A stretch of DNA of 45,904 nt from contig JBLHSI010000001.1 in the NCBI GenBank assembly GCA_047626655.1, positions 1 through 45,904 on the forward strand. Direction: 5' to 3'. The first letter of the stretch is position 1. Each line of letters begins with the position of its first letter. This document shows, one piece after another, positions 4,764 through 20,500 of the stretch. The notes below the pieces were generated by a model. That model saw only the letters and a program-made list of their open reading frames with translations. It did not search any database and was not told the DNA's origin. Made by a program: the position numbers and the translations under genes. The DNA is from Halioglobus sp. (GTDB taxonomy: Bacteria > Pseudomonadota > Gammaproteobacteria > Pseudomonadales > Halieaceae).

Positions 4764-5465
4764 ATGACTCTCATGAGTAATTCACTAATTTCGCAGAACG
4801 TAACAAAGCTAGCAAGCAGAGTACGTCTCGCCGCACAAAAAAGCCAGCGCAGCCCTCAGGACATCAGCATTGTCGCAGCCAGTAAAACCCGTTCTGCCGA
4901 TATCATCGAGCAGGCATTTCAGGCGGGCATAACCCACTTTGGGGAAAACTATCTACAGGAGGCGCTGGAAAAAATCGACCAGCTGCGCGCGCTCAAGATT
5001 GTGTGGCATTTTATTGGGCCGATTCAATCTAACAAAACCCGGGCAATTGCCGAAAATTTTGATTGGGTACACAGCGTTGATCGAGCCAAAGTTGCCCGCC
5101 GGCTCAGCGCTCAGCGCCCTGATAAGCTGCCACCTCTGCAATTGTGCTTGCAGGTCAATATTTCGCAAGAGCCTAGTAAGTCGGGCGTGCTAGCCCAGGA
5201 ATTGCCCGAGCTCGTACAAGAAATATCTGAGCTTGAAAATATCCAACTGCGTGGCCTGATGGCGATTCCCGCAGCCACCACGGATGCACGCGAGCAACTT
5301 TTGGCATTTGGTCAGATGCGCGAGCTTCTGGCGTCTGTGCAGGCTATGAGTCCGACCATGGACACTCTGTCTATGGGTATGTCTGCTGATTTGGAAGCGG
5401 CCATCGCGCAGGGGTCTACCCTCATTCGGGTGGGTACTGATGTTTTTGGCCCGCGTGACAGGTGA
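4764..5465 (+). CDS. yggS: YggS-family pyridoxal-phosphate homeostasis protein
   Basis: AASKTR (PLP lysine), FGENYLQEA, and WHFIGPIQSNKTR motifs; 233 aa. Confidence 0.9.
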   Translation: MTLMSNSLISQNVTKLASRVRLAAQKSQRSPQDISIVAASKTRSADIIEQAFQAGITHFGENYLQEALEKIDQLRALKIVWHFIGPIQSNKTRAIAENFDWVHSVDRAKVARRLSAQRPDKLPPLQLCLQVNISQEPSKSGVLAQELPELVQEISELENIQLRGLMAIPAATTDAREQLLAFGQMRELLASVQAMSPTMDTLSMGMSADLEAAIAQGSTLIRVGTDVFGPRDR

Positions 5466-5535
5466 TATTGCCTACCCGCCCTGTGTATACTGGGCTATTC
5501 GGTAAAACACCTTTTTAGACAGTATAGGTACAGAT

Positions 5536-6357
5536 TTGGACACACCACGTATTGCTTTTATTGGCGCAGGAAATATGGCCAGCAGTATTATTGGCGGCTT
5601 GGTTGAGAGCGGCCACTCGCCACAAGATATCAGCGTTGCCGATCCCTATCCGCCCAGTTTGGAGAAGTTGAGTACGATCGCTGCTGTGCGCGTATGTCAC
5701 AGCAACGAGGCGGCGGTAGACGGCGCAGATGTTGTGGTTCTGGCAGTGAAGCCGCAAGTCATGTCCGAGGCGATTAGCAGTATTGCGGGGGCGGTCGCCA
5801 CGAGCGGTGCAGTGCTTATGTCTATTGCTGCTGGTGTTACCATTGCCAGTATGCAGAAACGCCTGAGTGCACCGGCCGCCATCGTCCGCTGCATGCCTAA
5901 TACGCCCGCTTTGCTGGGCTGTGGTGCCAGTGCGCTGTATGCTAATGAACATACATCTGAGCAACAACGAGATTACGCACAGAGCGTATTGTCGGCCGTA
6001 GGGCTAGCGACATGGGTGGACGACGAAGCGTTGCTGGAGGCTGTAACGGCCTTGTCTGGTAGCGGCCCTGCCTATTTCTTTCTGTTTATGGAGGCGATGA
6101 TTGCCGCCGGAGTCGAGTTGGGCTTGGACAGTCAAACCGCCACGCAGTTGACACATCAAACGGCTTTAGGTGCTGCTAGAATGGCCGTGGAAAACGATGT
6201 CCCATTGGCCGAGCTGCGGCGTCGTGTTACTAGTCCCGGCGGAACCACCCAAAGTGCCGTTGAGAACTTTCAAGACAACAATCTCAACATCATAGTTGCC
6301 CAAGCCATGCAAGCTGCCGCCAATCGAGCAGCGCAAATGGCCGAAGAAACGGGCTAA
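5536..6357 (+). CDS. proC: pyrroline-5-carboxylate reductase
   Basis: IAFIGAGNMASSIIGGL Rossmann motif, plus CMPNTPALLG, SGSGPAYFF and VTSPGGTT. TTG start at 5536. Confidence 0.9.
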   Translation: MDTPRIAFIGAGNMASSIIGGLVESGHSPQDISVADPYPPSLEKLSTIAAVRVCHSNEAAVDGADVVVLAVKPQVMSEAISSIAGAVATSGAVLMSIAAGVTIASMQKRLSAPAAIVRCMPNTPALLGCGASALYANEHTSEQQRDYAQSVLSAVGLATWVDDEALLEAVTALSGSGPAYFFLFMEAMIAAGVELGLDSQTATQLTHQTALGAARMAVENDVPLAELRRRVTSPGGTTQSAVENFQDNNLNIIVAQAMQAAANRAAQMAEETG

Positions 6358-6376
6358 ACAAGGAGTAAATGAAAAG

Positions 6377-6964
6377 ATGGGCGCATTAGCTGATATCTCT
6401 GCGTATCTTGTGCAAACAGTTGTGAGCCTGTATCTGCTGGCCATGTTACTGCGATTTCTACTGCAGCTGGTGAAAGCGGATTTTTACAATCCGATTAGCC
6501 AGTTTCTGGTCAAGGTTACCAATCCCTTAGTGATCCCTCTAAGAAAAGTCATTCCCGGCTTTGGTGGGATAGACATCGCCACGTTACTGCTGTCGTTACT
6601 GTTGCAGATACTAGCGATGGTGGCCGTGCTAATGCTCAACGGCTGGCAGCTACCCAACCCCTTACAATTATTACTTTGGGGTGGGCTTGGCTTGGTTGGA
6701 TTGCTGGTTAACATTTACTTTTTTGCGCTGTTGGCAATGATTATTTTGAGTTGGGTGGCGCCGGGTAGCAGTAACCCCGCAGTCTATATGCTGCACCAAA
6801 TAACGGAGCCGGTGATGGTCCCCGTGCGAAAAATTGTGCCGCCTATGGGTGGTCTGGATTTCTCTCCTATTGTGGTGTTTATACTGATCAATATTATTCA
6901 AATAGCATTGGGACATATGGCATCCGAGATACAGCTGCCCTCCGGCTTGGCCATTGGCCTCTAG
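6377..6964 (+). CDS. yggT: YggT-family integral membrane protein
   Basis: Two YGGT-type repeats with 4-5 hydrophobic helices. AAGGAG at 6360-6365 precedes ATG 6377. The longer ORF from 6296 overlaps the proC 3' end. Confidence 0.85.
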   Translation: MGALADISAYLVQTVVSLYLLAMLLRFLLQLVKADFYNPISQFLVKVTNPLVIPLRKVIPGFGGIDIATLLLSLLLQILAMVAVLMLNGWQLPNPLQLLLWGGLGLVGLLVNIYFFALLAMIILSWVAPGSSNPAVYMLHQITEPVMVPVRKIVPPMGGLDFSPIVVFILINIIQIALGHMASEIQLPSGLAIGL

Positions 6965-6973
6965 ACTAATGCC

Positions 6974-8158
6974 GTGAATAGCAGCAGCGAAAATGGTTCA
7001 GCGAGCACGCGCGCATCGCCCACCGATGCGAATCTTGCGGACTTGGTGGTGCCCCAGCGAGCACAGTTTGACGAGCCGCTCCAGCTCGCCTGCGGGCGTG
7101 AACTAAGCCGCTATGAACTGGTGTATGAGACCTATGGCGAACTCAACGCAGCAAAATCGAATGCCATTTTAATCTGCCATGCATTGAGCGGTCATCACCA
7201 TGCTGCCGGCTATCATCACCGCGACGAAAAAAAACCCGGTTGGTGGGACGAATGCATAGGCCCTGGCAAGGCTATTGACAGCAATAATTTTTTTATCGTC
7301 AGCTTAAATAATTTGGGCGGTTGTCACGGATCCACCGGGCCCTGTTCAATCAACCCGGACAGCGGAGAACCTTGGGGCCCTGATTTTCCAAGCCTGCGCG
7401 CGCGCGACTGGGTTCACTCGCAAGCCCGATTGGCAGACCGTTTGGGTGTTGCCTGCTGGGCCGCTGTGATAGGGGGTAGTCTGGGAGGCATGCAGGCTAT
7501 GCGCTGGTCGCTGGAATATCCCGAGCGGGTAAAACACTGTATCGCTATTGCTTCAGCGATGAAGCTCAGCGCCCAGAACATTGCCTTTAACGAGATCGCC
7601 AGGCAGAGTATTTTCGCCGACCCCGATTTTGCCCAGGGTTATTATTTGAAAAAAGGCACTGTGCCGGCCAGAGGCTTGGGGCTTGCCCGCATGGTAGGTC
7701 ACATCACGTATTTGTCTGAAGATGCCATGGCGAAAAAGTTTGGCCGGGATTTGCGCAGTGGCACCTTAGATACCGGTACAGACGATGATATTGAGTTTCA
7801 GGTCGAGAGTTATCTGCGTTACCAGGGCCGTCAGTTCTCCGACAACTTCGATGCGAACACCTATATCCTCATGACCAGGGCTTTGGATTATTTTGATTTG
7901 GCTCGTGAGTATGACAATGATCCAGTCGCTGCATTCAAGCATGCCCGTTGCAGTTATTTAGTACTTTCTTTTTCAACAGACTGGCGATTTTCGCCGACCA
8001 GATCGCGTGAAATAGTCGATGCATTAATCGCGGCGGGTCGGCCCGTATCCTATTCGGAGCTAGTGGCCAATGAGGGTCATGATGCCTTCTTACTGCCTAT
8101 ACCGCGCTACCTGAGCGTGCTTAGTGCCTACATGCGTCGCGTGGGAGCGGAGCTGTAA
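6974..8158 (+). CDS. metX: homoserine O-acyltransferase (MetX family; acetyl vs succinyl specificity not decidable here)
   Basis: Alpha/beta-hydrolase with [11 protein letters not shown] and the nucleophile elbow GGSLGGMQA, followed by metW. GTG start. Confidence 0.9.
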
Positions 8159-8763
8159 TGCGTCTCGATCTCACACATATACAGCGCTGGATAGACACGG
8201 GCTCTCGCGTATTGGATTTGGGTTGTGGCAACGGTGAATTCCTGCAAATGTTGCGCGATGGCCGTCAAGTCATTGGCATGGGCCTTGAAATTGATGATGA
8301 CAATATCACCGAGGCCATTTCACGCGGACTCAATATAATTGAGCAGGACTTGAATGGCGGTCTAACTAACTTCCCCGATCAGAGCTTTGATACGGTAGTG
8401 ATGGCTCATGCGCTGCAGGCGGTTCGCTATCCCGATTTGGTACTGGATGAAATGCTGCGCATTGGCCGTGAGTGCATAGTGACTTTTCCCAACTTTGGAC
8501 ATTGGCGTTGCCGCCTCCATCTTAGTACTAGGGGTCGCATGCCGGTATCTGACTTAATGCCCTACAACTGGTACGACACGCCCAATATTCATTTTTGTAC
8601 GGTGCGCGATTTTGAGCAGCTTTGCGATGCCAAGGGGATTACTATTTTGGCGCGCGAAGTGGTTGGCAATACTCAGCGTAAACCTATGTTAGCCGCTCAA
8701 TGGCCCAACTTGTTTGCCACTACGGCCATCTATCACATTACCCGAGGAGGCGAAGATGCCTAA
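8158..8763 (+). CDS. metW: methionine biosynthesis protein MetW
   Basis: SAM-MTase-like VLDLGCGNGEFL, FPNFGHWRCRL and NIHFCT motifs. Its ATG overlaps the metX stop (TAATG). Confidence 0.9.
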   Translation: MRLDLTHIQRWIDTGSRVLDLGCGNGEFLQMLRDGRQVIGMGLEIDDDNITEAISRGLNIIEQDLNGGLTNFPDQSFDTVVMAHALQAVRYPDLVLDEMLRIGRECIVTFPNFGHWRCRLHLSTRGRMPVSDLMPYNWYDTPNIHFCTVRDFEQLCDAKGITILAREVVGNTQRKPMLAAQWPNLFATTAIYHITRGGEDA

Positions 8764-9208
8764 TTACATGACAGCTTTAGCCGCTTTACTTTGCCTGCTG
8801 CTTTTTAGTAGTGCCTCCGGGGCGCAGCAGTCCCAGATGTTTGATCAGTATGAAGTGCATTACAGTGTAGTTAATTCGACATTTTTGGATCCCAAAATTG
8901 CCGCTACCTACGGTATTACCCGAGGTAAAAAGAGCGCCATTTTGAATCTAGCGGTTCGCGAGCACTTGAGTGAAGAGCCCAATGGGCCAACAGAAGCCAG
9001 AGCCATGCTGCTAAAAGGAAAAACCTGGGATCTCATTCAAAACCAATCCTTGGAATTCCAGCAGGTGAAGGAAAGCGCGGCTATTTACTACATTGCCGAG
9101 TTTAAGTTTATCAACGAAGAGTGGCGTTTTTTTGAAGTAGACTTTCGACCCGAAGGCGCCGATAAAACCTATACCTTTAAGCTGAAGCACCAGCTGTACA
9201 TCAACTGA
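8756..9208 (+). CDS. DUF4426-like secreted protein
   Basis: GGAGG precedes ATG 8756. Signal peptide MPNYMTALAALLCLLLFSSASGAQQ. Conserved position between metW and rdgB in Pseudomonas-like genomes. Confidence 0.7.
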   Translation: MPNYMTALAALLCLLLFSSASGAQQSQMFDQYEVHYSVVNSTFLDPKIAATYGITRGKKSAILNLAVREHLSEEPNGPTEARAMLLKGKTWDLIQNQSLEFQQVKESAAIYYIAEFKFINEEWRFFEVDFRPEGADKTYTFKLKHQLYIN

Positions 9209-9810
9209 TGGTCGCACAAGACGCATCGGTTGTTGTGCTGGCCAGCGGCAACGCGGGCAAATTGGCAGAGCTGTCTCGCATACTGTCTCCGCTGCCGTTC
9301 AGTTTGCGCTCGCAAGCCGAATTTGATATGCCCGATGTCGTGGAAGATGGTCTTAGTTTTGTGGAAAACGCCATTATAAAAGCCAGAGCCGTGGCCAAAT
9401 TCACTGGCCATGCAACTATTGCCGACGATTCCGGTCTGGAGGTGGATCATTTGTTGGGTGCTCCAGGTATCTATTCTGCGAGGTACTCGGGCGAGGGCGA
9501 CGCAGCCAACAATGCGAAATTGCTAACGGCGCTGGCAATGCTGCCTCGCAGTGAGCGTACCGCTCGTTTTCAATGTGTCCTGGTTTACATGCGCCACTGG
9601 CGTGACCCTACGCCCATTGTGTGTCAAGGCAGTTGGGAGGGAGAGATTTTATTTGAAGCGGCGGGCGTTAACGGCTTTGGCTATGACCCATTGTTCTTCC
9701 TCTCCAAATATCAGTGCAGCTCCGCGCAATTGGATGCCGCCGAGAAAAACCGCGTGAGCCACCGTGCCAAGGCCAGCGTGCTCCTATTGGAAGCACTGCG
9801 TCAACGCTAA
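9208..9810 (+). CDS. rdgB: XTP/dITP diphosphatase (non-canonical purine NTP pyrophosphatase)
   Basis: VLASGNAGKLAEL, ADDSGLEVD.LLGAPGIYSARY, GFGYDPLF and SHRAKA motifs. TGATG overlap with the upstream gene. Confidence 0.9.
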   Translation: MVAQDASVVVLASGNAGKLAELSRILSPLPFSLRSQAEFDMPDVVEDGLSFVENAIIKARAVAKFTGHATIADDSGLEVDHLLGAPGIYSARYSGEGDAANNAKLLTALAMLPRSERTARFQCVLVYMRHWRDPTPIVCQGSWEGEILFEAAGVNGFGYDPLFFLSKYQCSSAQLDAAEKNRVSHRAKASVLLLEALRQR

Positions 9811-9811
9811 T

Positions 9812-10957
9812 ATGCCACTGTTGGAATTGCCACCACTGAGTCTGTATATCCACCTGCCCTGGTGTGAGAAAAAGTGTCCCTACTGCGATTTCAACTCTCA
9901 TGAATCTACTCAAACTTTGCCTGAACAAGACTATGTAGACAGTCTGTTGGCTGATCTGCAGGCTGATTTACCTTTCGTGGCAGGCAGGGCTATAGGCACC
10001 ATTTTTATCGGGGGTGGTACTCCCAGTCTGTTTTCGGCCTCGGCTATTGCGCGTCTAATGCGCGGTATTGCCGAGCGCCTAGAACTGTCTGTAGGGCTTG
10101 AGGTTACGATGGAGGCGAACCCGGGCAGCGCAGAAGCTGAGAAATTTCATGGCTATCGCGAAGCTGGCATCAATAGAGTTTCTCTGGGTATTCAGAGCTT
10201 TCAAGATGATCAACTACAGTCACTGGGTCGCGTACACAGCAGCCATGAGGCTCACGCAGCCATCGAGAAATTGAGCTTGGCTGGGCTGAGTAATTTTAAT
10301 ATTGATTTGATGCATGGACTCCCGGGTCAAACTGAGCGAGGTGCCACCGCCGACCTAGAAACAGCGCTATCGTATGAGCCTGCTCACCTGTCTTGGTATC
10401 AGCTGACAATCGAGCCCAATACGGTATTTCATAAACGCCCCCCGACTCTGCCCGTTGACGATACGCTTGCTGACATACAAGCAAGTGGCGAGCGCCTAAT
10501 AGGCGAACGGGGATATCGACAATATGAAGTTTCAGCCTATGCTCGTCCTGACAAACACTGCCGGCACAATGAAAATTACTGGTCCTTCGGTGATTATCTC
10601 GGTATCGGGGCTGGTGCGCACAGCAAAATTAGCCGTTTAGACGGTCCGGTTACCCGCTATGCAAAGCGCCGGCAACCGGGCGAGTATATGCGGGCTGAAA
10701 ACAATTGTTTTATCGCCAGTAGGCGTGAGCTAGAACCCGAAGACATCATCGGCGAGTTCATGCTCAATGCGCTGCGTCGGAATAGGGGCTTTAGTTTACC
10801 GCACTTTAGCCTGCGTACAGGTCTTGGTACAGAGGTTGTCGAGTCAAAAGTTTCGGCTCTGGTTGATAGGAAGCTGTTGGTTTTGGACGGCGACTTTATC
10901 TGTACGTCAGAGCTCGGTCGCCGTTTTTTAGACACGGTTGTCGCTGAGTTTTTCTAG
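9812..10957 (+). CDS. hemW: radical SAM heme chaperone HemW (coproporphyrinogen III oxidase-like)
   Basis: LYIHLPWCEKKCPYCDFNS (CxxxCxxC) and the GGGTPS motif. ATG 9812 lies 1 nt after the rdgB stop. Confidence 0.9.
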   Translation: MPLLELPPLSLYIHLPWCEKKCPYCDFNSHESTQTLPEQDYVDSLLADLQADLPFVAGRAIGTIFIGGGTPSLFSASAIARLMRGIAERLELSVGLEVTMEANPGSAEAEKFHGYREAGINRVSLGIQSFQDDQLQSLGRVHSSHEAHAAIEKLSLAGLSNFNIDLMHGLPGQTERGATADLETALSYEPAHLSWYQLTIEPNTVFHKRPPTLPVDDTLADIQASGERLIGERGYRQYEVSAYARPDKHCRHNENYWSFGDYLGIGAGAHSKISRLDGPVTRYAKRRQPGEYMRAENNCFIASRRELEPEDIIGEFMLNALRRNRGFSLPHFSLRTGLGTEVVESKVSALVDRKLLVLDGDFICTSELGRRFLDTVVAEFF

Positions 10958-11691: not shown

Positions 11692-13128
11692 TTATTGTTC
11701 CAGTTTATCCAATAGAGCGCGTATCTCAGATTCGTTGGGTGGCCCAAATCGAGTCAGCAACACATGGCCCTCAGAATCGGTAATGAGGGTGGCGGGCAGG
11801 CCATCTATTTGGAGTGCGTCGGTCAAAATTTTCTTTGCTGCCGCTCGCGATTGCTCGGATAAGCCAATCAGGAGCTCATAGGGTGGTGTGTACTTTGACA
11901 CCCATTCAGTGAGCAAGTCCTCGCCTTCCTCTTCATCGTAGGGAAGCCCCACCATAGCCATCACGTTCTCGCCAATGGAGTCGCGCAGCGTGGTCAGTGC
12001 CGGGAGCTCGGCCAAGCATGGACCACACCAAGTTGCCATTGTGGTGTACATGATGAGCTTCGATTCGCCTGTGTTGTTGATCAGGGGCAGCAAGATGGGT
12101 TTGTTGCGCACAACTGTGGGCTTATCGCGTACTACCGGCGTGGGCACTGTATCTGTCGCTGCTAGAAGTGAGCGTATCTCGGATTCGTTGGGGGGGCCGA
12201 AGCGCGTTAGCAGTACTCTGCCGCGGGTGTCGGTGATTAGGGTCGCCGGTAAGCCATCTATTTTGAGAGCACCTTTCAAAATGTTCTTTGCCGCCGTTCT
12301 AGAGTCATTCGCTAGTGTAGTGAGCAGTTGGTACGGCGGGTTATATTGATCCAGCCAGTCTTCCAGCAGGTTTTCACCCTCGTCTTCGTCGTAGGGAAGG
12401 CCCACCATGGCCATTACATTCTCGCCTATGGCGTCACGCAAACTAGTCAGCACCGGAAGCTCAGCGATGCACGGGCTGCACCAGGTGGCCATTGTGGTGT
12501 ACATGATTAAACGCTGTTCTCCGCTAGGGCTCACTAACGGAGGGAAGACTGGGAGGTTGTTATGGGGAGTTTCGATTGTCGAAAAGTCGATGGTGGCCGC
12601 ATAGGGAGCCACAGTAAATGATTGACCCGCAGGCGCAGCTTCTTTATTTTCGAATAGTGTGACTAATTGCCCCGCGTTGATGGGTCCGATGCTCTGTGTC
12701 TTACCTGATGGCCAGTGCACGCGAATATTATTTACTTGCGATTGCTCTCCCAGGCCGATCAGCATGGTCGCGCTATTTTGCGCGCCCATCCCTTCACCTG
12801 CGCGGTGCTCGCGGAGTAAAACCTTGTCATTCAATTCGACTTCTACTGTTACGCCATAGCCGTCACGATTACTCCAAGCCTGGTTCGCGTTGGGGGTTCT
12901 GTTACCGCCCTCGAAGCGCAGCGCAATGATTTGCATGGTGGAGTTTTGTGCGGAGTTTTGCTGCGCGCCGAGATTTCGGTACAAGGCAAAGCGAGGAGCA
13001 TTAGCGCCAACCACCGCGGCGTCCAGCCAACCATCGCGGTCAAAATCGAGCCAGCTGAAGGCCCTGCCGTCGCCTGAATGGTCGAGGCCGGAGACAGCGG
13101 AGACATCGGTGAACTCCTTGCCGCCCAA
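11692..13128 (-). CDS. 3' segment of the interrupted CRTAC1-family frame: last FG-GAP repeat, UnbV/ASPIC domain, and two TlpA-like thioredoxin domains
   Basis: UnbV_ASPIC-like WSNRDGYGVTVEV..GEGMGAQNS..IGLG..VHWPSGK. Two thioredoxin-fold domains carry WCSPC (12469-12480) and WCGPC (12016-12027). It is in the same frame as 13288..15399. The ORF-track start is an internal TTG (Leu). Confidence 0.8.
   Translation of the reverse strand: MGGKEFTDVSAVSGLDHSGDGRAFSWLDFDRDGWLDAAVVGANAPRFALYRNLGAQQNSAQNSTMQIIALRFEGGNRTPNANQAWSNRDGYGVTVEVELNDKVLLREHRAGEGMGAQNSATMLIGLGEQSQVNNIRVHWPSGKTQSIGPINAGQLVTLFENKEAAPAGQSFTVAPYAATIDFSTIETPHNNLPVFPPLVSPSGEQRLIMYTTMATWCSPCIAELPVLTSLRDAIGENVMAMVGLPYDEDEGENLLEDWLDQYNPPYQLLTTLANDSRTAAKNILKGALKIDGLPATLITDTRGRVLLTRFGPPNESEIRSLLAATDTVPTPVVRDKPTVVRNKPILLPLINNTGESKLIMYTTMATWCGPCLAELPALTTLRDSIGENVMAMVGLPYDEEEGEDLLTEWVSKYTPPYELLIGLSEQSRAAAKKILTDALQIDGLPATLITDSEGHVLLTRFGPPNESEIRALLDKLEQ
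11707..12540 (-). repeat. tandem intragenic duplication of a TlpA-like thioredoxin domain (period 453 bp, 151 codons)
   Basis: Copy 1 is about 12160-12540 and copy 2 about 11707-12087. The CxxC motifs lie exactly 453 nt apart. By hand alignment about 90 of 121 residues are identical. Confidence 0.9.
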
Positions 13129-13255
13129 ATTCAGAAATAGGTGGTTGCGCTCGTGGCCGCTAAAAGAAGAGCCGCGCTCCAGGTCTCTTGAACTGACGCG
13201 TAAAGCGCCCGCCTCACCGCCCCCGTCAAACTCATGAGTGATGGGAAGCTTCGAA

Positions 13256-13280
13256 TCCGTGCGCGCAACTGCGCGCCAGA
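13256..13280 (-). promoter_or_regulatory. SECIS-like RNA hairpin 3' of the in-frame UGA
   Basis: The mRNA reads UGA-ACUGACUUCUG-GCGCGC-AGUU-GCGCGC-ACGGA. A perfect 6-bp GC stem starts 11 nt after the UGA and carries an AGUU loop (GU in the loop). The stem can be extended by G-C, U-G, C-G and U-A pairs with one bulged A. Confidence 0.4.
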
Positions 13281-13287
13281 AGTCAGT

Positions 13288-15399
13288 TCAGGTGTCGACC
13301 GGGATTTCGGCTTCCCCCGGCGCCGTGTAATAACCACTCAAAGCAAAAATATCCAGGGTACCGTCGTTGTTAACGTCGGCAAATTGGCTACCCCAGCTCC
13401 AACCCGCATGCTCAACCGTTAAGCTGGGCTGGGTCATACCCGAGACATGCTGAAACGTACCTTCGATGTTGCGTAGCAGCGAGTTGCCGCGCGCCATCTT
13501 TACAATTCTCGGATCAATACCAGGAATTTGTGCAGTAATTCTTTGTCCGGCTTTGCTGTACATGTTCGAGACGTATAGATCTTGTCGACCGTCTTGATCG
13601 TAGTCGCCCCATGTGGCGCCCATGCCAAAGCCAATGTCGGCTGTGTTGCTGGCCTGTGTGACGTCGGTAAACTTACCTGTGCCATCATTGCGCAACAAAA
13701 CATTGGGGGAAAAATCATTGGCAACGTACAGATCCGGGTCGCCGTCACGATCGTAGTCGGCCCATGTCGATTGGTAGCTGTTTAGGAATAGACGGGTGTT
13801 GGCTTCGCTACCCACAGCAGTAAATCCCGAGCCCGTATTACGCAGAAGTACGTTTGGGGGCCCGGGTCTGTTGAGATTTTCGTGCGTGTCCTTTTTTTCT
13901 AATAAGCGGCTGAGTTCGTCAGAATCAGAGTCGGGCAAAAACCGTTCGAATGCCTCGCGGCCCTGATGTCGAATAAGGTCAGCGGCATATGTTGAAATAT
14001 ACAGATCAAGCAGGCCGTCGCCATCGTAGTCGGCTGCAGACATCGACGAAACGAAAAAGGGCATTGGGACATCTATATCTTTGGAGTGGTCAACATAAAC
14101 ACCGCCTTCATTCTTTAGGTAAACACTTCTAGCCAAAGTCCTGCCGACAAAGACATCGGGGTCACCATCGTTATCAAAATCTGCAAAAATGGCGGATGAA
14201 TTGAAATCGGTTAAAGCCAGCCCGTAGTCATCTGCGCTTTCACTGAATGTACCGTTGCCTTGATTGCGCAGGAGCATCGCCGGTCCCCACCGCGCCAGAA
14301 GATAGATGTCGTCGAATCCATCATCGTCGATATCGACGATAGCAACTCCGGGGTGTCGGTCGAATGCCGGCAAACTGAACAGCTCATGCGGCTTTGATCG
14401 GACACCATCTTCTTCGCCGAGCAAAAATTTTAGTACGAACTCTTCATGGCGTGAGCGACGTGCTTCAGCCAGGTCTGCCGGCGACAGCACCAAATCGAGT
14501 ACATCTGCAAACAGTAGTTGGTCTGATTCTTGTATTTGTAGCTTGGAGGTGTGCCATTCTTTTATACGCCAGCCGGAGGCCTCCTCCGCCGGTACAGATG
14601 GCTCGCGACCCCAAACCAGAGTGAGTTTGCCCTCAACCGATGCATGCTGACCTTGGTTCAGGCGCGCGAGCGCATAAAATCCCACGGAGGTCTCATAACG
14701 CTGGTGAGTGTCGTCAAGAAAACGGCCTTTTATCGGGTAGAACTTTGCATGCTCAAAATACTTGACTGTTGTTAACAACGGCTGCCACAGGAGCAAGCTT
14801 TCTCGTGAGATCGTCTGAGTCTGTTTCGCGATAGTAAGTTCGCGTTGGATTAGTTGGGCTGTTAGTGCTCTTGCAGGTGCAGAGCTTGTGGCGTCACTGG
14901 TTAGGTCCCGCACCATGACTTGCTCGGCAAACAGTAAGCTACCTTCGTGATCAGGTAACTTTAGGTTGAGAATACTGCTGGAGAGTGTTTTTTTCAGTGG
15001 TAGTGTTAGTTTGAGTAACAGTTCTTCGCCAGCCGACATCTCCTCCCATGCCAGGCGTAAGTCACGGTCCGGGTCGATGATGTGCAACGCTTTTAGGTTG
15101 CCATAGATACCCACACACAAAACAGACAGCAAGCCCACTACTGCGATGCGCACAGTAGAAACCGTAAATCTGAGGGCGGGCTGGCGCAGTATTAGCCATA
15201 CCCCGGCGGCGAAGATAAAAACTTGCAATACGACGATGATAGCGATGCTGGTCTCAGCGTAGATGTGCTGATCGGCGCTGAATAGCCGCTCCAGAGACCA
15301 CTTGTTAAAAATAAGGGCAACCAGCACCAATAACAGACCAATAAGGCGATGTGGGAATCTACCTGACTCTGCGCTTGAGTGTATTGGCTGTTCGTTCAT
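13288..15399 (-). CDS. 5' segment of the interrupted CRTAC1-family frame: 3 TM helices, an uncharacterised region, and FG-GAP/VCBS repeats, ending at an in-frame TGA
   Basis: N-terminal hydrophobic helices. Repeated D.D.DG..D calcium-binding-type FG-GAP motifs: DIDDDGFDDIYL, DFDNDGDPDVFV, DYDGDGLLDLYI, DYDRDGDPDLYV, DYDQDGRQDLYV, DVNNDGTLDIF. The frame terminates at TGA 13288-13290 but continues in the same frame. Confidence 0.85.
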   Translation of the reverse strand: MNEQPIHSSAESGRFPHRLIGLLLVLVALIFNKWSLERLFSADQHIYAETSIAIIVVLQVFIFAAGVWLILRQPALRFTVSTVRIAVVGLLSVLCVGIYGNLKALHIIDPDRDLRLAWEEMSAGEELLLKLTLPLKKTLSSSILNLKLPDHEGSLLFAEQVMVRDLTSDATSSAPARALTAQLIQRELTIAKQTQTISRESLLLWQPLLTTVKYFEHAKFYPIKGRFLDDTHQRYETSVGFYALARLNQGQHASVEGKLTLVWGREPSVPAEEASGWRIKEWHTSKLQIQESDQLLFADVLDLVLSPADLAEARRSRHEEFVLKFLLGEEDGVRSKPHELFSLPAFDRHPGVAIVDIDDDGFDDIYLLARWGPAMLLRNQGNGTFSESADDYGLALTDFNSSAIFADFDNDGDPDVFVGRTLARSVYLKNEGGVYVDHSKDIDVPMPFFVSSMSAADYDGDGLLDLYISTYAADLIRHQGREAFERFLPDSDSDELSRLLEKKDTHENLNRPGPPNVLLRNTGSGFTAVGSEANTRLFLNSYQSTWADYDRDGDPDLYVANDFSPNVLLRNDGTGKFTDVTQASNTADIGFGMGATWGDYDQDGRQDLYVSNMYSKAGQRITAQIPGIDPRIVKMARGNSLLRNIEGTFQHVSGMTQPSLTVEHAGWSWGSQFADVNNDGTLDIFALSGYYTAPGEAEIPVDT

Positions 15400-15718: not shown

Positions 15719-17185
15719 ATGAGCACAAACTATCAGCAGAAACAGAGTGTATCGCACAGTCAGGTGGTTATCATCTTGTCCACCGTGTTGCGGCTGGTGG
15801 CATCGCTTGCCCTAACAATGTTGATAGGTAGAGAGCTGGACCCAGCGGATTTTGGGTTTTACGCGCTGGTAATAACGCTTTTTGTCATGGCGAGAGAATT
15901 GATGGACGTCGGCTCTACGAGCTTGGCGGTGCGCGAAATAGCTCTTGATCCTAGTGGCGAAAAATCGATTCTGGAAAGGCTAGTCGGTTTGCGGCTAGTG
16001 GCAGGGATTATCCTCGGTATATTGTGTTTGAGTCTTGCATGGCAGCAAAGTGAGCTATCACACCGATTAGTATTGTCCGTCACCGCGCTTATGTTACCGC
16101 TGCTGGCAGTGGGGGCGCTAGGTGTTGTGTATCAACTGCGGCAAAACTTACTGCCACTAGCGATCAACTCAACGAGCTTACAATACGGCCTGCTAATAGG
16201 TTGTTTCGGGCTTTATTTTGTTCAGGCGCCGGCGTGGTCTTATCCCTGCCTGCTTCTTGTACGAGAGCTGGCCGGCTTGCTGTGGTTAAAAATACACGCA
16301 GGAAAAACGCTGGGATATACAGTTACACCGAATTTGGCTTTTAACAACATGCGGTCATTTTTGCGCAAGCTGGCTGTCGTTGGAGCTGCAGCTGCGATGT
16401 ACAACTTGTACTTTTACGTGGGTCCGCTACTCATTTGGCTGCTTCGCCCGGCAACAGAAATGGGTGCCTACTCCGCTGCATTTAGACCGATTAGCCAAAT
16501 ATTGTCATTTCCCTTGATGTTGATGGTTCCGCTGCTGCCTGTTCTCACCCAATTTTTTGCCAACGATCGCCCTGCGCTGCAAAGGCAGGCCGCATGCTTT
16601 ATTCCTCTCGCGATTGGCCTGGGTGCAATTGGCGGGGTGGTGGGTCTGGAGGTGAGCAGAGATCTACTGTTTGTGCTGTATGGCGACATCTATATTGTGG
16701 GAGCCTTGTCGGCGGAGAGAAGCTTGCAAATTCTTTCTCTGTCGTTCGCTTTTTCAATGGCAACGGCGGTTGTGATTATGTTTCTGCTGGCACAGGGCCT
16801 CGAACGAGTACTTGTTGTGATGTGCTCAATGGGTTTGATCGTCAATCTGTTGTGTAATTTTGTGCTGTTGCCAAAGATTGGTTTTACCGCCGCGGCGATG
16901 GCGACGCTCGCTACCGAAGTGGCGGTTTTCCTCTTTGGCGCCGTTACCATGATACGCCTCAAGGTTTGGAGAGTGTCTGCATTATCCCTCGCAGCCTGCC
17001 TGCTTCCGACAATCGTTTTGGCGATTGCAATTCAACTCATGCCCGAGGCTGGGCAAGGTTGGCCCAGGCTTGTACCGGTGCTGGTTCTGGCGGTTACCGC
17101 AATGTTGAGCTTGTTATTGCTGCCCAGCACGAAACGCGGGCGGGAGGATCTTTCTCGCCAAGCTGTGGACGCCGTCACAAGTTGA
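15719..17185 (+). CDS. MOP-superfamily oligosaccharide/polysaccharide flippase (first of two in the window)
   Basis: 488 aa and very hydrophobic (12 or more predicted helices). The N-terminal pattern LRLVASLALTMLIGRELDPADFGFYALV is typical of Wzx/polysaccharide biosynthesis protein families. Confidence 0.75.
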   Translation: MSTNYQQKQSVSHSQVVIILSTVLRLVASLALTMLIGRELDPADFGFYALVITLFVMARELMDVGSTSLAVREIALDPSGEKSILERLVGLRLVAGIILGILCLSLAWQQSELSHRLVLSVTALMLPLLAVGALGVVYQLRQNLLPLAINSTSLQYGLLIGCFGLYFVQAPAWSYPCLLLVRELAGLLWLKIHAGKTLGYTVTPNLAFNNMRSFLRKLAVVGAAAAMYNLYFYVGPLLIWLLRPATEMGAYSAAFRPISQILSFPLMLMVPLLPVLTQFFANDRPALQRQAACFIPLAIGLGAIGGVVGLEVSRDLLFVLYGDIYIVGALSAERSLQILSLSFAFSMATAVVIMFLLAQGLERVLVVMCSMGLIVNLLCNFVLLPKIGFTAAAMATLATEVAVFLFGAVTMIRLKVWRVSALSLAACLLPTIVLAIAIQLMPEAGQGWPRLVPVLVLAVTAMLSLLLLPSTKRGREDLSRQAVDAVTS

Positions 17186-17353
17186 GCAAAGAGCCTATTA
17201 GCAGCACTGCTTAGAGCGCAAAAGACTGATCTTTTTGGATGTTTTTTTGGTATGTTGCAAACACAATGAGGTAAAATGCGATCGTTAGGTTCTCCAGCCG
17301 CACCCATTTGGTGGCATCGTTGGTTTGCAAATAGGTAATGAAAAGAGGCACTT

Positions 17354-19168
17354 ATGAACAGGATTCACTCGCTTTTGGCGCTTACGTGCCTGCTGCCATT
17401 GCAGCATGTACACGCTCAAGGGACTATCTCTGGATTTGACCACTTCAGCTCACTGGTTGAATGGCAGGAGTCTTCTGGGCGCGAAGTAACGCCGCTGCAT
17501 GCATCGTTACTGCCAACCGGTGACATATTGTTTGTCAGCTACTTCAAGTTTTTTGAAGATCCGGAGTTAGATTTAACAACACCTGGATTTATACCTGAAT
17601 TTGCCTTTGTCATGGCCCCCGGCGCGCCTTATGTGCCTCCACCTGCAACAGTAACCGTGCAACCCGAGCTGATTCCATTCTCTCTCACCCTTGATATCGA
17701 TGAGCAAACGAATACCGCGTACTACAAAAGCCTAGTCTGCAGCGGCCACTCCTTAATGGAAGATGGCAGCTTGTTTTTCGGTAGCGGTACCGACGTTGAA
17801 ATCGATTTGGATCTTTATAACAGCGGTCAGCTTACAGAGAGCTTGGTTGTCGATGGATTGACTGAATCGCTCACTTACAACCCGTTTGGCCAAAGCTGGA
17901 TTCAAAACCCCGATACTATTGGCGCGGGGCCATTACTCGATAGGCCCGGACGCTGGTATGGCACCGTCACCAGACTCGCCGATTCAAGAATGTTACTGAC
18001 AGGCGGATATGAGAAAGTTGTGCCGGATAATTCTTACAACAATACGGTGGAGATTTTTGATCCGACAACAAACGCCTGGTCTATTGTTTCTGATTTAAAT
18101 GATACGCCGTTGGGCATTGAAAACCCCGATTATCCTCATGTGTTCCAGTACCCATTGGATTTCGGCTCCTACGGTTTGGTGCTAATGATTGGCGGTTCAG
18201 GAGAACCCAAGTTCTTGATGATGGATGGCGCCAACACATTTTGGTATGAGACCGGAAAGTATCGACCCGGAGCCCAGGAATATATCGATGCAAAAGCACC
18301 CGCTAAGGTCTTTCCCAATCATGGATCCTCTAGTGCTATGTTGCCTCTTCGGCTACCCGGTGATGGCTGGGGCTATACCAATGGTAGCGTCGTTAATGTA
18401 GGCGGCGCCCATATGACACCTATGGAAGGCAATGTTGACGTTTTTGATACGGGTTTAAATGAGTGGCTACCCTCCGTTAGCATGGGAGGTTTGCGCCATC
18501 ATGCATCAACGGTAATTCTTCCAGATGGTCGCATACTTATCCTCGGCGGCCACGATGACATGAGCCCTGTTAAGGAGACTGGGTTGGCGCTATACGTAGA
18601 CCCCAAAAACAATTTTGAAGTGACTAAAGGTTTGTCGGTCATGGCAGAAACACGCGGCTACCACACGGTGTCACTGTTAATACCCGATGGACGCGTATTA
18701 ATCGGTAGCGGTAACCCCGGTGGTAAGGAAGGCTTTGAGTTGCCCAATTTCCGCTACTACTATCCCGATTACATGTTTGAGCCTCGACCACGAATCGTCT
18801 CTATCAAGGAGACCATGGAGATGGCTAAATATTCGCTGCTCTTTGTGCCGCATTTAACGAATGTCGAGGAGGCAGTGCTCATTGGACTGGGCTCCATGAC
18901 ACACTCTTTTGATATGAGCCAGAGGAGCGTGCAACTTGCCGTGACCGACATGGCGATTATAATTCAATTGACTGCGCAGGGATGGGCAACCGTTGGTCCA
19001 GAGGAATGTGTGAGTCAACCGGAAAGCTGCTTCGATTTACATGCAATACGGGCACCTGAGTCAGAACAGATGGCACCTCCAGGTTATTATATGCTGTCTA
19101 TTCTCGATGAAAACCGTGTTCCATCACCTGCTAAAATGGTGAAACTAGAACGTAGCCCTAGTGCGTAA
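17354..19168 (+). CDS. secreted copper radical oxidase (galactose oxidase / glyoxal oxidase-like, AA5-type, with C-terminal DUF1929-like domain)
   Basis: Signal peptide MNRIHSLLALTCLLPLQHVHAQG. VCSGHS (Cys129, 17738-17740), GRWYGT (Tyr202, 17957-17959), RGYHTVSLLIPDGRVL (Tyr436-His437, 18659-18664) and MTHSFD (His517, 18902-18904) match the Cys-Tyr cofactor and Cu ligands of galactose/glyoxal oxidases. AAAGAGG precedes the ATG. Confidence 0.8.
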   Translation: MNRIHSLLALTCLLPLQHVHAQGTISGFDHFSSLVEWQESSGREVTPLHASLLPTGDILFVSYFKFFEDPELDLTTPGFIPEFAFVMAPGAPYVPPPATVTVQPELIPFSLTLDIDEQTNTAYYKSLVCSGHSLMEDGSLFFGSGTDVEIDLDLYNSGQLTESLVVDGLTESLTYNPFGQSWIQNPDTIGAGPLLDRPGRWYGTVTRLADSRMLLTGGYEKVVPDNSYNNTVEIFDPTTNAWSIVSDLNDTPLGIENPDYPHVFQYPLDFGSYGLVLMIGGSGEPKFLMMDGANTFWYETGKYRPGAQEYIDAKAPAKVFPNHGSSSAMLPLRLPGDGWGYTNGSVVNVGGAHMTPMEGNVDVFDTGLNEWLPSVSMGGLRHHASTVILPDGRILILGGHDDMSPVKETGLALYVDPKNNFEVTKGLSVMAETRGYHTVSLLIPDGRVLIGSGNPGGKEGFELPNFRYYYPDYMFEPRPRIVSIKETMEMAKYSLLFVPHLTNVEEAVLIGLGSMTHSFDMSQRSVQLAVTDMAIIIQLTAQGWATVGPEECVSQPESCFDLHAIRAPESEQMAPPGYYMLSILDENRVPSPAKMVKLERSPSA

Positions 19169-19200
19169 GCCGAGAACTTGGTCTAGTCAAGGATCCCTAG

Positions 19201-20154
19201 TTAGGGTTCTTTGACGGGTCGACTTTCTTGCGGTGGTGCAAACAAGTTGTGGATGTAGCGTCGTGTGACAGTTAATGGACGTGTTGCAAGATAGCGTATA
19301 GAGCCCTTCTTAAAGATTCTTATTAGTCCTTGCCATACATCCGTTTTTGTCAGGATTTCTAGTAGGCCAATATGTGCCTGATGGACTTCTCTGCGGTGTT
19401 TCAAAAGTGCTTTATCGATTAGCGGTTCGCAGATATCAAGAATTTCCAGGACTTCGTAGTGCACAGTGATTTTCGATGTTCCGGAATAAGAAATACTCTC
19501 CTCGTGTTTGCGATACCAGCAGCATAGTTCTGGTAATGCAGCGGCTAAGTAGCCTCTGGCCACCATTAGAATGTAGTAGTAGTCTGAGATTAGGACAATG
19601 CTGGGTGGAATGCCGCCTATTTCGAGTACTGCCGATCGGCGCAGAACGACAGAACTGTATGATATAAAAGAGGGCATGGTGATAAGCTTTTGGAATACAT
19701 CACCTTGCGGGAGTTCATTTCTATTGTGCCACCGATCGAAGGGCTCTACTTTTTCGGATTGATAAAACTGCAGGGCCCAGCCATAGACTATTCCGAGCTT
19801 TCCAGAAGTATCCCGATCAATGGCGGCGCTCTGTAGCGCCAGTTTATTTGCTGGCCAGATATCGTCATGATCCAGGAACGCTAGCCAGTCTCCCTTGGCA
19901 AAGTGCACCACCAAATTACGCGCTGGTCCGACGGTAGTATGTTCAGGTGCGTAGAAGTATTTGACTCTATCATCATCAAGGTCTTTACAAATCGCAGCAG
20001 TGTTGTCTGTAGACTGGTTGTCCCAAATAATGAGTTCCCAGTCGGTACAGGTTTGAGCGAATACGCTTTCTAGCGCTTCCGGTAAGTATTTTTCCCCATT
20101 GTATGCGTTGATAATGATGGAAAACTTTGGGGTTTTCGATTCACTCTTGTTCAT
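19201..20154 (-). CDS. family 2 glycosyltransferase
   Basis: FSIIINAYNGEKYL..ALESVFAQT..ELIIWDNQSTD and FLDHDD (DxD) motifs. Start taken as ATG 20154 (MNKSESKTPKFSIII); the ORF-track start at 20283 adds a non-homologous extension that covers a palindromic site. Confidence 0.8.
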   Translation of the reverse strand: MNKSESKTPKFSIIINAYNGEKYLPEALESVFAQTCTDWELIIWDNQSTDNTAAICKDLDDDRVKYFYAPEHTTVGPARNLVVHFAKGDWLAFLDHDDIWPANKLALQSAAIDRDTSGKLGIVYGWALQFYQSEKVEPFDRWHNRNELPQGDVFQKLITMPSFISYSSVVLRRSAVLEIGGIPPSIVLISDYYYILMVARGYLAAALPELCCWYRKHEESISYSGTSKITVHYEVLEILDICEPLIDKALLKHRREVHQAHIGLLEILTKTDVWQGLIRIFKKGSIRYLATRPLTVTRRYIHNLFAPPQESRPVKEP

Positions 20155-20201
20155 GATTATTATTAACTGACTATGACCTATAAGCATACGCGAACCACCC
20201 G

Positions 20202-20214
20202 ACAATTCAATTGT
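20202..20214. promoter_or_regulatory. palindrome ACAATT-C-AATTGT, candidate operator
   Basis: 6-bp perfect arms. It shares the AATTCAA core with the palindrome at 20501-20520 in the same divergent intergenic region. Confidence 0.3.
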
Positions 20215-20500
20215 TGATGAATAAGCTCGCTCCGTTATTGTCGAAAAGTCGCCATTTTGTGCACTTTCTAGGATTGTGCTCACTGCGCGGTAAAAAAAAT
20301 GCCCAAACGTGGCCTTTTAACGCTTATTTTATGAGTTGGGAAGGCCCTGGCCTTTTGTTTATCGAGGAGAAATGTTTGATGCGTTGTGGGGCATAAGAAA
20401 TTGAGGTACCAGTTCACAAAACGGAGATAATTACAGCAATTCGATCTAAGTGGCGCAACTATCTGCATAACTTAGTATGGGTTGTGGTTTGATCTTCCTT

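Follow-up and report, generated by a model that had tools for sequence, protein, structure and literature searches.

The window analysed here, a stretch of 45,904 nucleotides from Halioglobus sp. (contig JBLHSI010000001.1), carries on its minus strand a 1,235-codon frame encoding an FG-GAP/UnbV_ASPIC protein, and the sole stop within this frame is a TGA at 13288-13290 that is followed by a hairpin. The 703-residue open reading frame (ORF) 13288..15399 and the frame 11692..13287 are in phase. Gene calling divides the gene into ORFs of 703 and ~478 amino acids, and homologues are divided likewise. An original prediction had joined the two ORFs through the TGA into one 1,235-codon frame, which the sequence bears out, and had offered a new selenoprotein or a nonsense pseudogene as the two options; conservation of the TGA, selection downstream of it, the existence of Cys-forms and the covariation of the hairpin settle the matter for the first option and against the second. 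We consider it highly probable that the TGA is a selenocysteine (Sec) codon with its own selenocysteine insertion sequence (SECIS), in a large, widespread and uncatalogued selenoprotein family.

Translation around the stop reads ..GEAEIPVDT*TDFWRAVARTDSKLPITHEFDGGGEAG..SFSGHERNHLFLNLGGKEFTDV.., and the hand translation given in the original prediction for the gap between the two ORFs is exact on re-translation. The linker motifs named there, FWR..V and SF.G.ERN..FLN, are found in full-length homologues. TGA is otherwise an ordinary stop in the window, where it ends 11 of 38 ORFs and is followed by 10-46 open codons; because of these terminations and the short open stretches beyond them, reassignment of the genetic code is ruled out.

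Table 1. Features of the putative selenoprotein gene (positions in the window).
Feature	Position	Strand	Basis or remark
Complete putative selenoprotein gene	11692..15399	minus	1,235 codons including one Sec-UGA
Start codon ATG	15397-15399	minus	
Terminal stop TAA	11692-11694	minus	
In-frame TGA, predicted Sec, residue 704	13288..13290	minus	TGA in the same column of relatives; Cys in P0004 and P0130
11-nt spacer ACTGACTTCTG (also ACUGACUUCUG)	13277..13287	minus	between UGA and base of upper stem
SECIS-type hairpin GCGCGC / AGUU / GCGCGC	13261..13276	minus	codons W-R-A-V-A-R
Hairpin part GCGCGC	13271-13276	minus	
Hairpin part AGTT	13267-13270	minus	
Hairpin part GCGCGC	13261-13266	minus	
Extended 10-bp form with bulged A	13256..13280	minus	RNAfold; lower 4 bp unsupported by comparison
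Predicted N-terminal membrane region, three hydrophobic segments (~residues 18-36, 50-73, 80-104)	15088..15348	minus	Kyte-Doolittle
FG-GAP/VCBS beta-propeller blades upstream of Sec	13291..14352	minus	Pfam FG-GAP_3 3.4e-38, FG-GAP 6e-23
UnbV_ASPIC domain	12658..12861	minus	Pfam PF07593, 1.4e-14
First thioredoxin-like domain (TlpA/DsbE/ResA-like)	12172..12519	minus	CSPC at 12469-12480
Second thioredoxin-like domain	11701..12078	minus	CGPC at 12016-12027; tandem duplicate of first

Recurrence of the TGA in relatives

With the fused protein as query, two kinds of homologue were returned. Full-length homologues (850-1,120 amino acids) carry UnbV_ASPIC, and shortened ones (~35 among the top 120; 683-799 amino acids) carry FG-GAP only and end at the TGA column. 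The short homologues share the end motif ..SGYYTAPxxxxxxD[TIL], the sole exception being P0087, which is out of frame. A protein 94% identical to that of the window (P0001, 7 member sequences) terminates at the same residue. In a search seeded with P0004, a full-length homologue with Cys at this column, 126 of the 150 best 50%-identity cluster representatives stop one residue short of its Cys657.

Inspection of the TGA column in relatives, as proposed in the original prediction, thus gave a recurrent TGA not only in these representatives but also at the nucleotide level: all 19 distinct loci have TGA at the same alignment column, and none has TAA or TAG. The carriers span at least five phyla, with members in Acidobacteriota, Gemmatimonadota, Verrucomicrobiota, Pseudomonadota, Planctomycetota and Rokubacteria. 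Among the TGA-form loci are the window itself (WIN), L001 (Acidobacteriota), L002 (Gemmatimonadetes), L003 (Akkermansiaceae), L004 (Proteobacteria), L006 (uncultured bacterium), L009 and L010 (Pirellulaceae), L081 (a Halioglobus metagenome-assembled genome, 70% identical to the window), L084 (a metagenome contig), L166 (Rokubacteria), L164, L165, L167, L168 and L171 with one copy each, and L169 with two tandem copies. Contig scans supplied ~10 usable Sec-form loci, the matches listed being mostly distant CRTAC1 paralogues, and more were obtained by exact-protein look-ups.

Beyond the TGA, the frame stays open for 209-531 codons, running via [ST]xxWRxVxR into UnbV_ASPIC and usually a thioredoxin-like domain; the downstream pieces of relatives bear UnbV_ASPIC and AhpC/Redoxin domains. 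Comparison of the window with L081 over 380 codons downstream of the TGA gave a non-synonymous divergence (pN) of 0.225 and a synonymous divergence (pS) of 0.79, against a non-synonymous divergence of 0.127 upstream; only pN and pS are given, with no dN/dS ratio, since the synonymous sites are saturated. Because non-synonymous divergence is low even though synonymous sites are saturated, we conclude that the part downstream of the TGA is translated, and by this measure its frame is under purifying selection.

Some relatives depart from the simple arrangement. L169 has tandem Sec-form genes (5001-10819) with TGA at 7119 and 10130 and a hairpin after each, and its second copy is followed by a separate AhpC-TSA gene in place of a fused thioredoxin domain. 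In L164, on a 2.96-Mb contig, a frameshift past UnbV_ASPIC (~12700-13200), probably an indel error or a genuine disruption, leaves separately called UnbV_ASPIC and AhpC-TSA pieces. Two fusion variants, P0200 (1742 amino acids) and P0132 (1459 amino acids), still terminate at the Sec column; upstream of the Sec-form unit P0200 resembles, by eye, a condensation-adenylation-carrier module of a nonribosomal peptide synthetase, and P0132 has an additional N-terminal stretch with FG-GAP-like repeats.

A hairpin in register with the TGA

The 6-bp GC stem that the original prediction placed 11 nt past the UGA, with GU in a 4-nt loop, is present in the sequence. A13270 pairs with U13267 to close the stem with a seventh pair that covaries, and G13269-U13268 stays exposed. 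The folding free energy (dG) of the hairpin is -10.9 kcal/mol. RNAfold gave a minimum free energy of -18.1 kcal/mol for 48 nt (z = -2.2 against dinucleotide shuffles). It also reproduces the predicted 10-bp extension with a bulged A, in which conservation is confined to the upper 6-7 bp and the loop. The 4 bp at the base were rejected as a conserved element: none of them shows both-side changes, and at two of them pairing is lost in 5/18 and 8/18 sequences.

The Sec-forms follow the register TGA nnn nnn nnn TGG CGC x1x2x3 GTy z1z2z3 CGC. The 5' arm consists of the last G of the Trp codon, the Arg codon and x1x2, the 3' arm of z1z2z3 and the second Arg codon, and x3 and y close the loop round G-U. 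Covariation of the 7-pair stem was tested on an 18-sequence alignment (A2) with 500 shuffles. In total, 96% of cells are paired, and four of the seven pairs show both-side changes (15 cells), with a covariation score of 0.363 compared with 0.188 for shuffles. No shuffle (0/500) matched the observed pairing percentage, number of both-side-changed cells or covariation score, counts that are not probabilities because the sequences share kinship. When the partner was slid by 1-3 columns, pairing was 9-72%, with at most one both-side-changed pair.

The closing pair is G-C in 10 sequences, A-U in seven and C-G in one, without exception, and consists of the third positions of codons 6 and 7 past the TGA, both synonymous. 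Both states occur within one amino-acid class (GCA GTT vs. GCG GTC; ACA GTT vs. ACG GTC). L164 has CGT...GCA where others have CGC...GCG, two synonymous changes that preserve the pair, and amino acids also covary with the stem (Ala/Ala GC-GC, Thr/Val AC-GU, Val/Met GU-AU). Together, the controls with a slid partner and the independent switches seen repeatedly support a real structure. The 11-nt spacer and the loop G-U (alignment columns 28-29) are invariant in 18/18 sequences, the loop reads GGUC in 10, AGUU in seven and CGUG in one, and dG lies between -6.7 and -10.9 kcal/mol in 17/18 Sec-forms. Because TGA and hairpin both recur across phyla, their combination is far beyond chance. Of five distinct non-Sec relatives encoding a peptide of the same WRxxxR type, four lack the stem, namely the Cys-form L082 (-0.4 kcal/mol), the Glu-forms L005 and L085 (-3.4 kcal/mol each) and the Ser-form L173 (+4.6 kcal/mol).

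The hairpin resembles known bacterial SECIS elements. The bSECISearch model has an apical loop of 3-9 nt, an upper stem of 4-16 bp, a minimum free energy of -7.5 kcal/mol or lower, a G within the first two loop nucleotides, mostly with G or U after it, and 16-37 nt from UGA to loop (PMC13188914). The window hairpin falls within this model on all four counts, with its 4-nt AGUU loop, 6-bp stem, 17 nt to the loop and dG of -10.9, and it has G at loop position 2, as the model demands. It stands at the short, compact end of the range and shows no substantive difference from the model. Rfam gave no relevant match, either for the hairpin region at E <= 10 or for the whole window at gathering thresholds, as is expected because bacterial SECIS elements are short.

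Comparison with the E. coli fdhF SECIS (TGA + CACGGCCCATC + GGTTGCAGGTCTGCACC in fdhF; TGA + ACTGACTTCTG + GCGCGCAGTTGCGCGC in the window) shows that both lie in coding sequence directly 3' of the UGA, with an identical 11-nt spacer to the upper stem, a short GC-rich stem and a tetraloop exposing G-U. The fdhF geometry given in the original prediction (11-nt spacer, GU loop, bulged U) was verified on the real fdhF sequence: TGA-CACGGCCCATC-GGTTGCA-GGTC-TGCACC is 100% identical to fdhF in the listed records, and 5,413 of 5,420 records from 5,419 genomes match the element at 99% or more. The fdhF loop GGUC is that of 10/18 family members, whereas the window has AGUU. Unlike that of fdhF, the family stem, uninterrupted in 18/18, consists of 6 perfect base pairs and a closing pair that covaries; G-U lies one nucleotide nearer the UGA because the bulged U of the 5' arm is absent; the lower stem is unconserved; and the host protein is unrelated to formate dehydrogenase H.

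Decoding of the TGA

Full-length relatives have a sense codon at the TGA column. Cys is found in P0004 (NIDL-C-SDFWRGVVR), the nearest full-length homologue, and in P0130 (DYDL-C-NEYWRSVVR), Ser in P0054, P0122, P0126 and P0127, Thr in P0178, and Glu in P0073, P0123, P0124 and P0129, as well as in a large group at ~40% identity (DLDL-E-SNLWRTMVR) with several members from Verrucomicrobiota. None of the full-length relatives has Trp, Arg or Gly. Of the residues that the original prediction had set for this column, Cys, in favour of Sec, is thus found, and Trp, Arg and Gly, which would have spoken against it, are absent; yet Ser, Thr and Glu occur too. The only conserved Cys residues of the Sec group are those of the CxxC motif in the thioredoxin domain. 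In contrast, Cys is conserved at five columns peculiar to the Glu group (e.g. WSWGGCFADFDND and REHRCG), where the Sec group has Ser, Gln, Asn or Ala, and the two groups are therefore distinct subfamilies. An acidic [D/E]-x-D-x motif precedes the column in most members (PVDTU, DADLU, DFDLU, DLDLE).

We propose that the hairpin at 13261-13276, starting 11 nt past the UGA and presenting a G-U tip, would serve as a bacterial SECIS. SelB-GTP bound to it, together with Sec-tRNA(Sec), would deliver Sec at the UGA, and translation would run on to give a single 1,235-residue protein.

Other accounts of the TGA were weighed against Sec insertion. A nonsense pseudogene or a sequencing or assembly error, arising from one point mutation or miscalled base, can be given practically no weight. 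A single stop between two long ORFs does resemble a recent nonsense mutation, but the TGA recurs at the identical column in 19 loci, which stem from several phyla and were assembled independently, and in 126/150 cluster representatives, the 94% identical P0001 ends at the same residue, and an artefact common to differing platforms and assemblers is implausible. Because the TGA recurs across phyla, the downstream frame is under selection and the hairpin after the stop covaries, the gene is not a pseudogene. Synthesis of two separate polypeptides, with termination at the TGA, re-initiation downstream and a hairpin acting in pausing or mRNA stability, would fit the public annotations, which show two genes every time, and the use of TGA as a normal stop in the window. 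It is nevertheless very unlikely: coding conservation sets in at the first codon past the TGA (TDFWRAVAR), where there is no start codon, and the called downstream ORFs begin 22-160 nt later at varying positions. Moreover, the break would split the propeller between blades and detach the helix that starts at the Cys, relatives with Cys, Ser or Glu run through as one full-length chain, and the stop is TGA in 19/19 loci, never TAA or TAG.

A downstream hairpin can also stimulate read-through in some systems, and the UGA could then be read in a programmed, SelB-independent manner by a near-cognate tRNA inserting a standard amino acid such as Trp or Cys. The failure to find sel genes in the window would fit this account, which we see as having little chance of being correct given the SelB-type geometry (11-nt spacer, G-U loop, GC stem), the fdhF-identical loop in 10/18 loci, the Cys, Ser, Thr and Glu (never Trp, Arg or Gly) of sense relatives, and a TGA-only usage that over such evolutionary distance is a signature of Sec.

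Several observations weigh against Sec insertion. The family hairpins lack fdhF's bulged U, which is important for SelB to bind in E. coli; the L006 hairpin is displaced by 4 nt, and L001, L165 and L169b have one stem mismatch each. The fifth non-Sec control, L174 (Glu-form P0073, dG -8.6 kcal/mol), retains after GAA a GCGCGC-CGCC-GUGCGC stem with a CGCC loop lacking GU, so that GC-rich WRAxVR codons can form part of the stem without SECIS selection; the stem may be either a relic of a past SECIS or a by-product of GC-rich WRAAVR codons, and because it is kept the claim that the controls lack the hairpin is weakened. Cys-forms are rare (the query P0004 and one of 10 column-spanning representatives), and Ser, Thr or Glu at the column is less typical than a plain Sec/Cys pair. 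Neither selA, selB nor selD was found among the ~40 ORFs of the 46-kb window by Pfam/NCBIfam annotation, and no tRNA-Sec gene was found there or in 16 related Sec-form loci. The missing sel genes say little, because such genes need not be linked, and the source genome is expected to hold selABCD; a literature search for Sec use in Halieaceae or Halioglobus returned nothing specific.

Protein architecture, setting and possible function

Pfam recognises five FG-GAP_3 stretches upstream of the stop and one further FG-GAP blade downstream, and the matches to PF13517, PF01839 and PF07593 are above gathering scores. The two C-terminal CxxC thioredoxin-fold domains named in the original prediction were confirmed as CSPC and CGPC domains with 96/150 identical residues, and the tandem pair looks like a recent domain duplication in the window lineage. 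A single thioredoxin-like domain is present in L001, L003, L165, L166 and L167 and two in the window, and a fused one is absent from L009, L010, L084 and both L169 copies. We infer a cytoplasmic N-terminus with the remainder of the protein outside the cytoplasm, the propeller, UnbV_ASPIC and CxxC domains being probably extracytoplasmic. A region of ~230 residues in the subfamily has no Pfam match.

An AlphaFold model of the Cys-form P0004 (pLDDT 85.4, pTM 0.85) places Cys657, the Sec equivalent, as the first residue of a helix (657-666), and a helix N-terminus is a typical position for redox-active Cys or Sec. By Foldseek, the propeller and UnbV_ASPIC of this model match murine CRTAC1 (9etn; E 9e-22, TM 0.70 normalised to target), and its C-terminal domain superposes on ResA, TlpA, StoA, DsbE and Etrx. 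Like CRTAC1/UnbV-ASPIC proteins, the window protein has an FG-GAP/VCBS beta-propeller followed by UnbV_ASPIC. The Sec subfamily differs from the rest of that family in its added N-terminal membrane anchor and ~230-residue domain, in having Sec, or in rare cases Cys, in place of the Glu of the large paralogous group, and in its C-terminal thioredoxin-like domain(s), without the five Cys columns of the Glu group. The C-terminal domains share the thioredoxin fold with W-C-x-x-C of ResA, TlpA, DsbE (CcmG), StoA and Etrx, but are fused to a propeller protein. They pass the Pfam cut-offs for AhpC-TSA (42.9 vs. 26) and Redoxin (35 vs. 26.6), whereas all NCBIfam equivalog or subfamily scores, such as those for dsbE (62.6 vs. 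123) and TlpA (59.4 vs. 230), are far below theirs, and the domains are therefore related to these proteins rather than orthologues of them.

The gene lies at the edge of a ~30-kb Wzx/Wzy-type exopolysaccharide cluster (15719-20283 and ~20.5-45.2 kb) with flippases, Wzy_C, GNVR, Poly_export, a priming sugar transferase, numerous glycosyltransferases, DegT and sugar epimerases. A Wzx-like flippase adjoins the gene in the window, L081, L169/L170 and L171. A trio of Wzx-like flippase, galactose-oxidase/GlxA-like protein (604 amino acids) and GT2 is syntenic between the window and L081 (5189-9679 in L081). Directly downstream of the Sec-form gene, L164 (13229-13708) and L168 (8313-8831) have a DsbD_N-domain gene, which suggests a dedicated electron relay to the thioredoxin-like domain and fits the DsbD-fed reductases of the ResA/TlpA type.

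We tentatively propose a periplasmic redox selenoenzyme, in which Sec would be the redox-active nucleophile and, once oxidised, would be re-reduced by the fused thioredoxin-like domain(s), themselves supplied by a DsbD-type relay; the protein would work in the envelope and be tied to exopolysaccharide synthesis. Catalogued selenoproteins predicted to act in thiol/selenol redox chemistry in the envelope or periplasm were likewise found through a conserved in-frame TGA, a SECIS and Cys homologues. Their Sec lies inside a thioredoxin-fold motif (UxxC, UGC, CxxU), whereas both thioredoxin domains of the window protein keep CxxC, its Sec lies ~270 residues upstream, in the beta-propeller, and most family members have no Cys near the Sec. 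Points against a redox function are that some Sec-forms have no fused thioredoxin domain, that the Glu-form P0024 also gives Redoxin and AhpC-TSA hits, and that the acidic [D/E]-x-D-x context together with the Glu of paralogues may leave room for a metal-ligand role. On that alternative, which we regard as unlikely, Sec would be a soft-metal ligand replacing the Glu of D-x-D-x-E in the paralogous subfamily. It would draw on the acidic motif before the column in most members, on Glu being the residue of the largest paralogous group, on the Sec-forms without a thioredoxin domain, on the copper protein of galactose-oxidase type syntenic in the window and L081, and on the precedent of Sec as a metal ligand in formate dehydrogenases and [NiFeSe] hydrogenases given in review text. 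The frequent fused or adjacent thioredoxin-like CxxC in Sec-forms and the DsbD_N neighbour in L164 and L168 argue against it, Ser and Thr variants suit a series of nucleophiles more than a soft-metal ligand, and the helix N-terminus is typical of a redox Cys or Sec.

None of FG-GAP, VCBS, UnbV_ASPIC and CRTAC1 occurs in any of the 119 prokaryotic selenoprotein families and subfamilies catalogued in May 2026 (PMC13188914, Table 1), and none is mentioned in the main text of the deep-Sep, BSepDB, GOS and Tara papers and a 2022 review. Full-text searches combining selenoprotein or selenocysteine with these domain names returned no relevant paper; an earlier description is not fully excludable because subscription journals are partly covered. 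No CRTAC1 relative is reported as a selenoprotein in the literature searched, and a search for CRTAC1 structure or function that would explain the Glu position gave nothing usable. NCBIfam, scanned with both halves of the protein, has no model for the family, the best selenoprotein-specific match being a sub-threshold one of the thioredoxin domain to WAxxUGC_long (27.9 vs. 300). The statement in the original prediction that no selenoprotein family of this architecture has been described agrees with the catalogue and with NCBIfam. The sole NCBI-named relative is labelled as a truncated 'FG-GAP repeat domain-containing protein'.

The mode of recoding is standard; the novelty lies in the family's fold, size (at least 126 clusters at 50% identity), probable extracytoplasmic location and dominance of Sec over Cys. 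Sec-forms far outnumber Cys-forms, and the Sec site lies outside the thioredoxin fold. Public annotation cuts every member in two, and a correction would mend many gene models and raise the extent of selenium use estimated for marine and soil bacteria. CRTAC1/UnbV-ASPIC proteins abound in environmental bacteria and also occur in humans, in whom CRTAC1 serves as a plasma marker of osteoarthritis and COVID-19; to our knowledge, their biochemical function is not known. Because Sec usually marks a catalytic residue, a conserved Sec is a strong pointer to the active site, and its fixed position offers a testable hypothesis on the site of CRTAC1/UnbV-ASPIC chemistry. A bolder and more doubtful reading is that this is the first beta-propeller (CRTAC1/UnbV-ASPIC) selenoprotein, with Sec rather than Cys as its normal state and with that Sec marking, where the large paralogous bacterial group has Glu, the catalytic centre of the CRTAC1 superfamily. 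If so, the protein would be an extracytoplasmic selenoenzyme with fused ResA/TlpA-like recycling via a DsbD relay and exopolysaccharide or envelope substrates, and would open a first functional approach to the superfamily to which human CRTAC1 belongs.

Further genes were noted around relatives. AMP-binding or PKS (polyketide synthase) genes lie near L164, L165, L169 and L171. A second full-length CRTAC1-like paralogue of 809-860 amino acids, with no TGA split, is present in L081 (2741-5185), L168 (2356-4938) and L171 (8978-11407). In L002, 12 tRNA genes are packed into 1.9 kb of the minus strand (11849-13706), ~4 kb downstream of the Sec-form gene.

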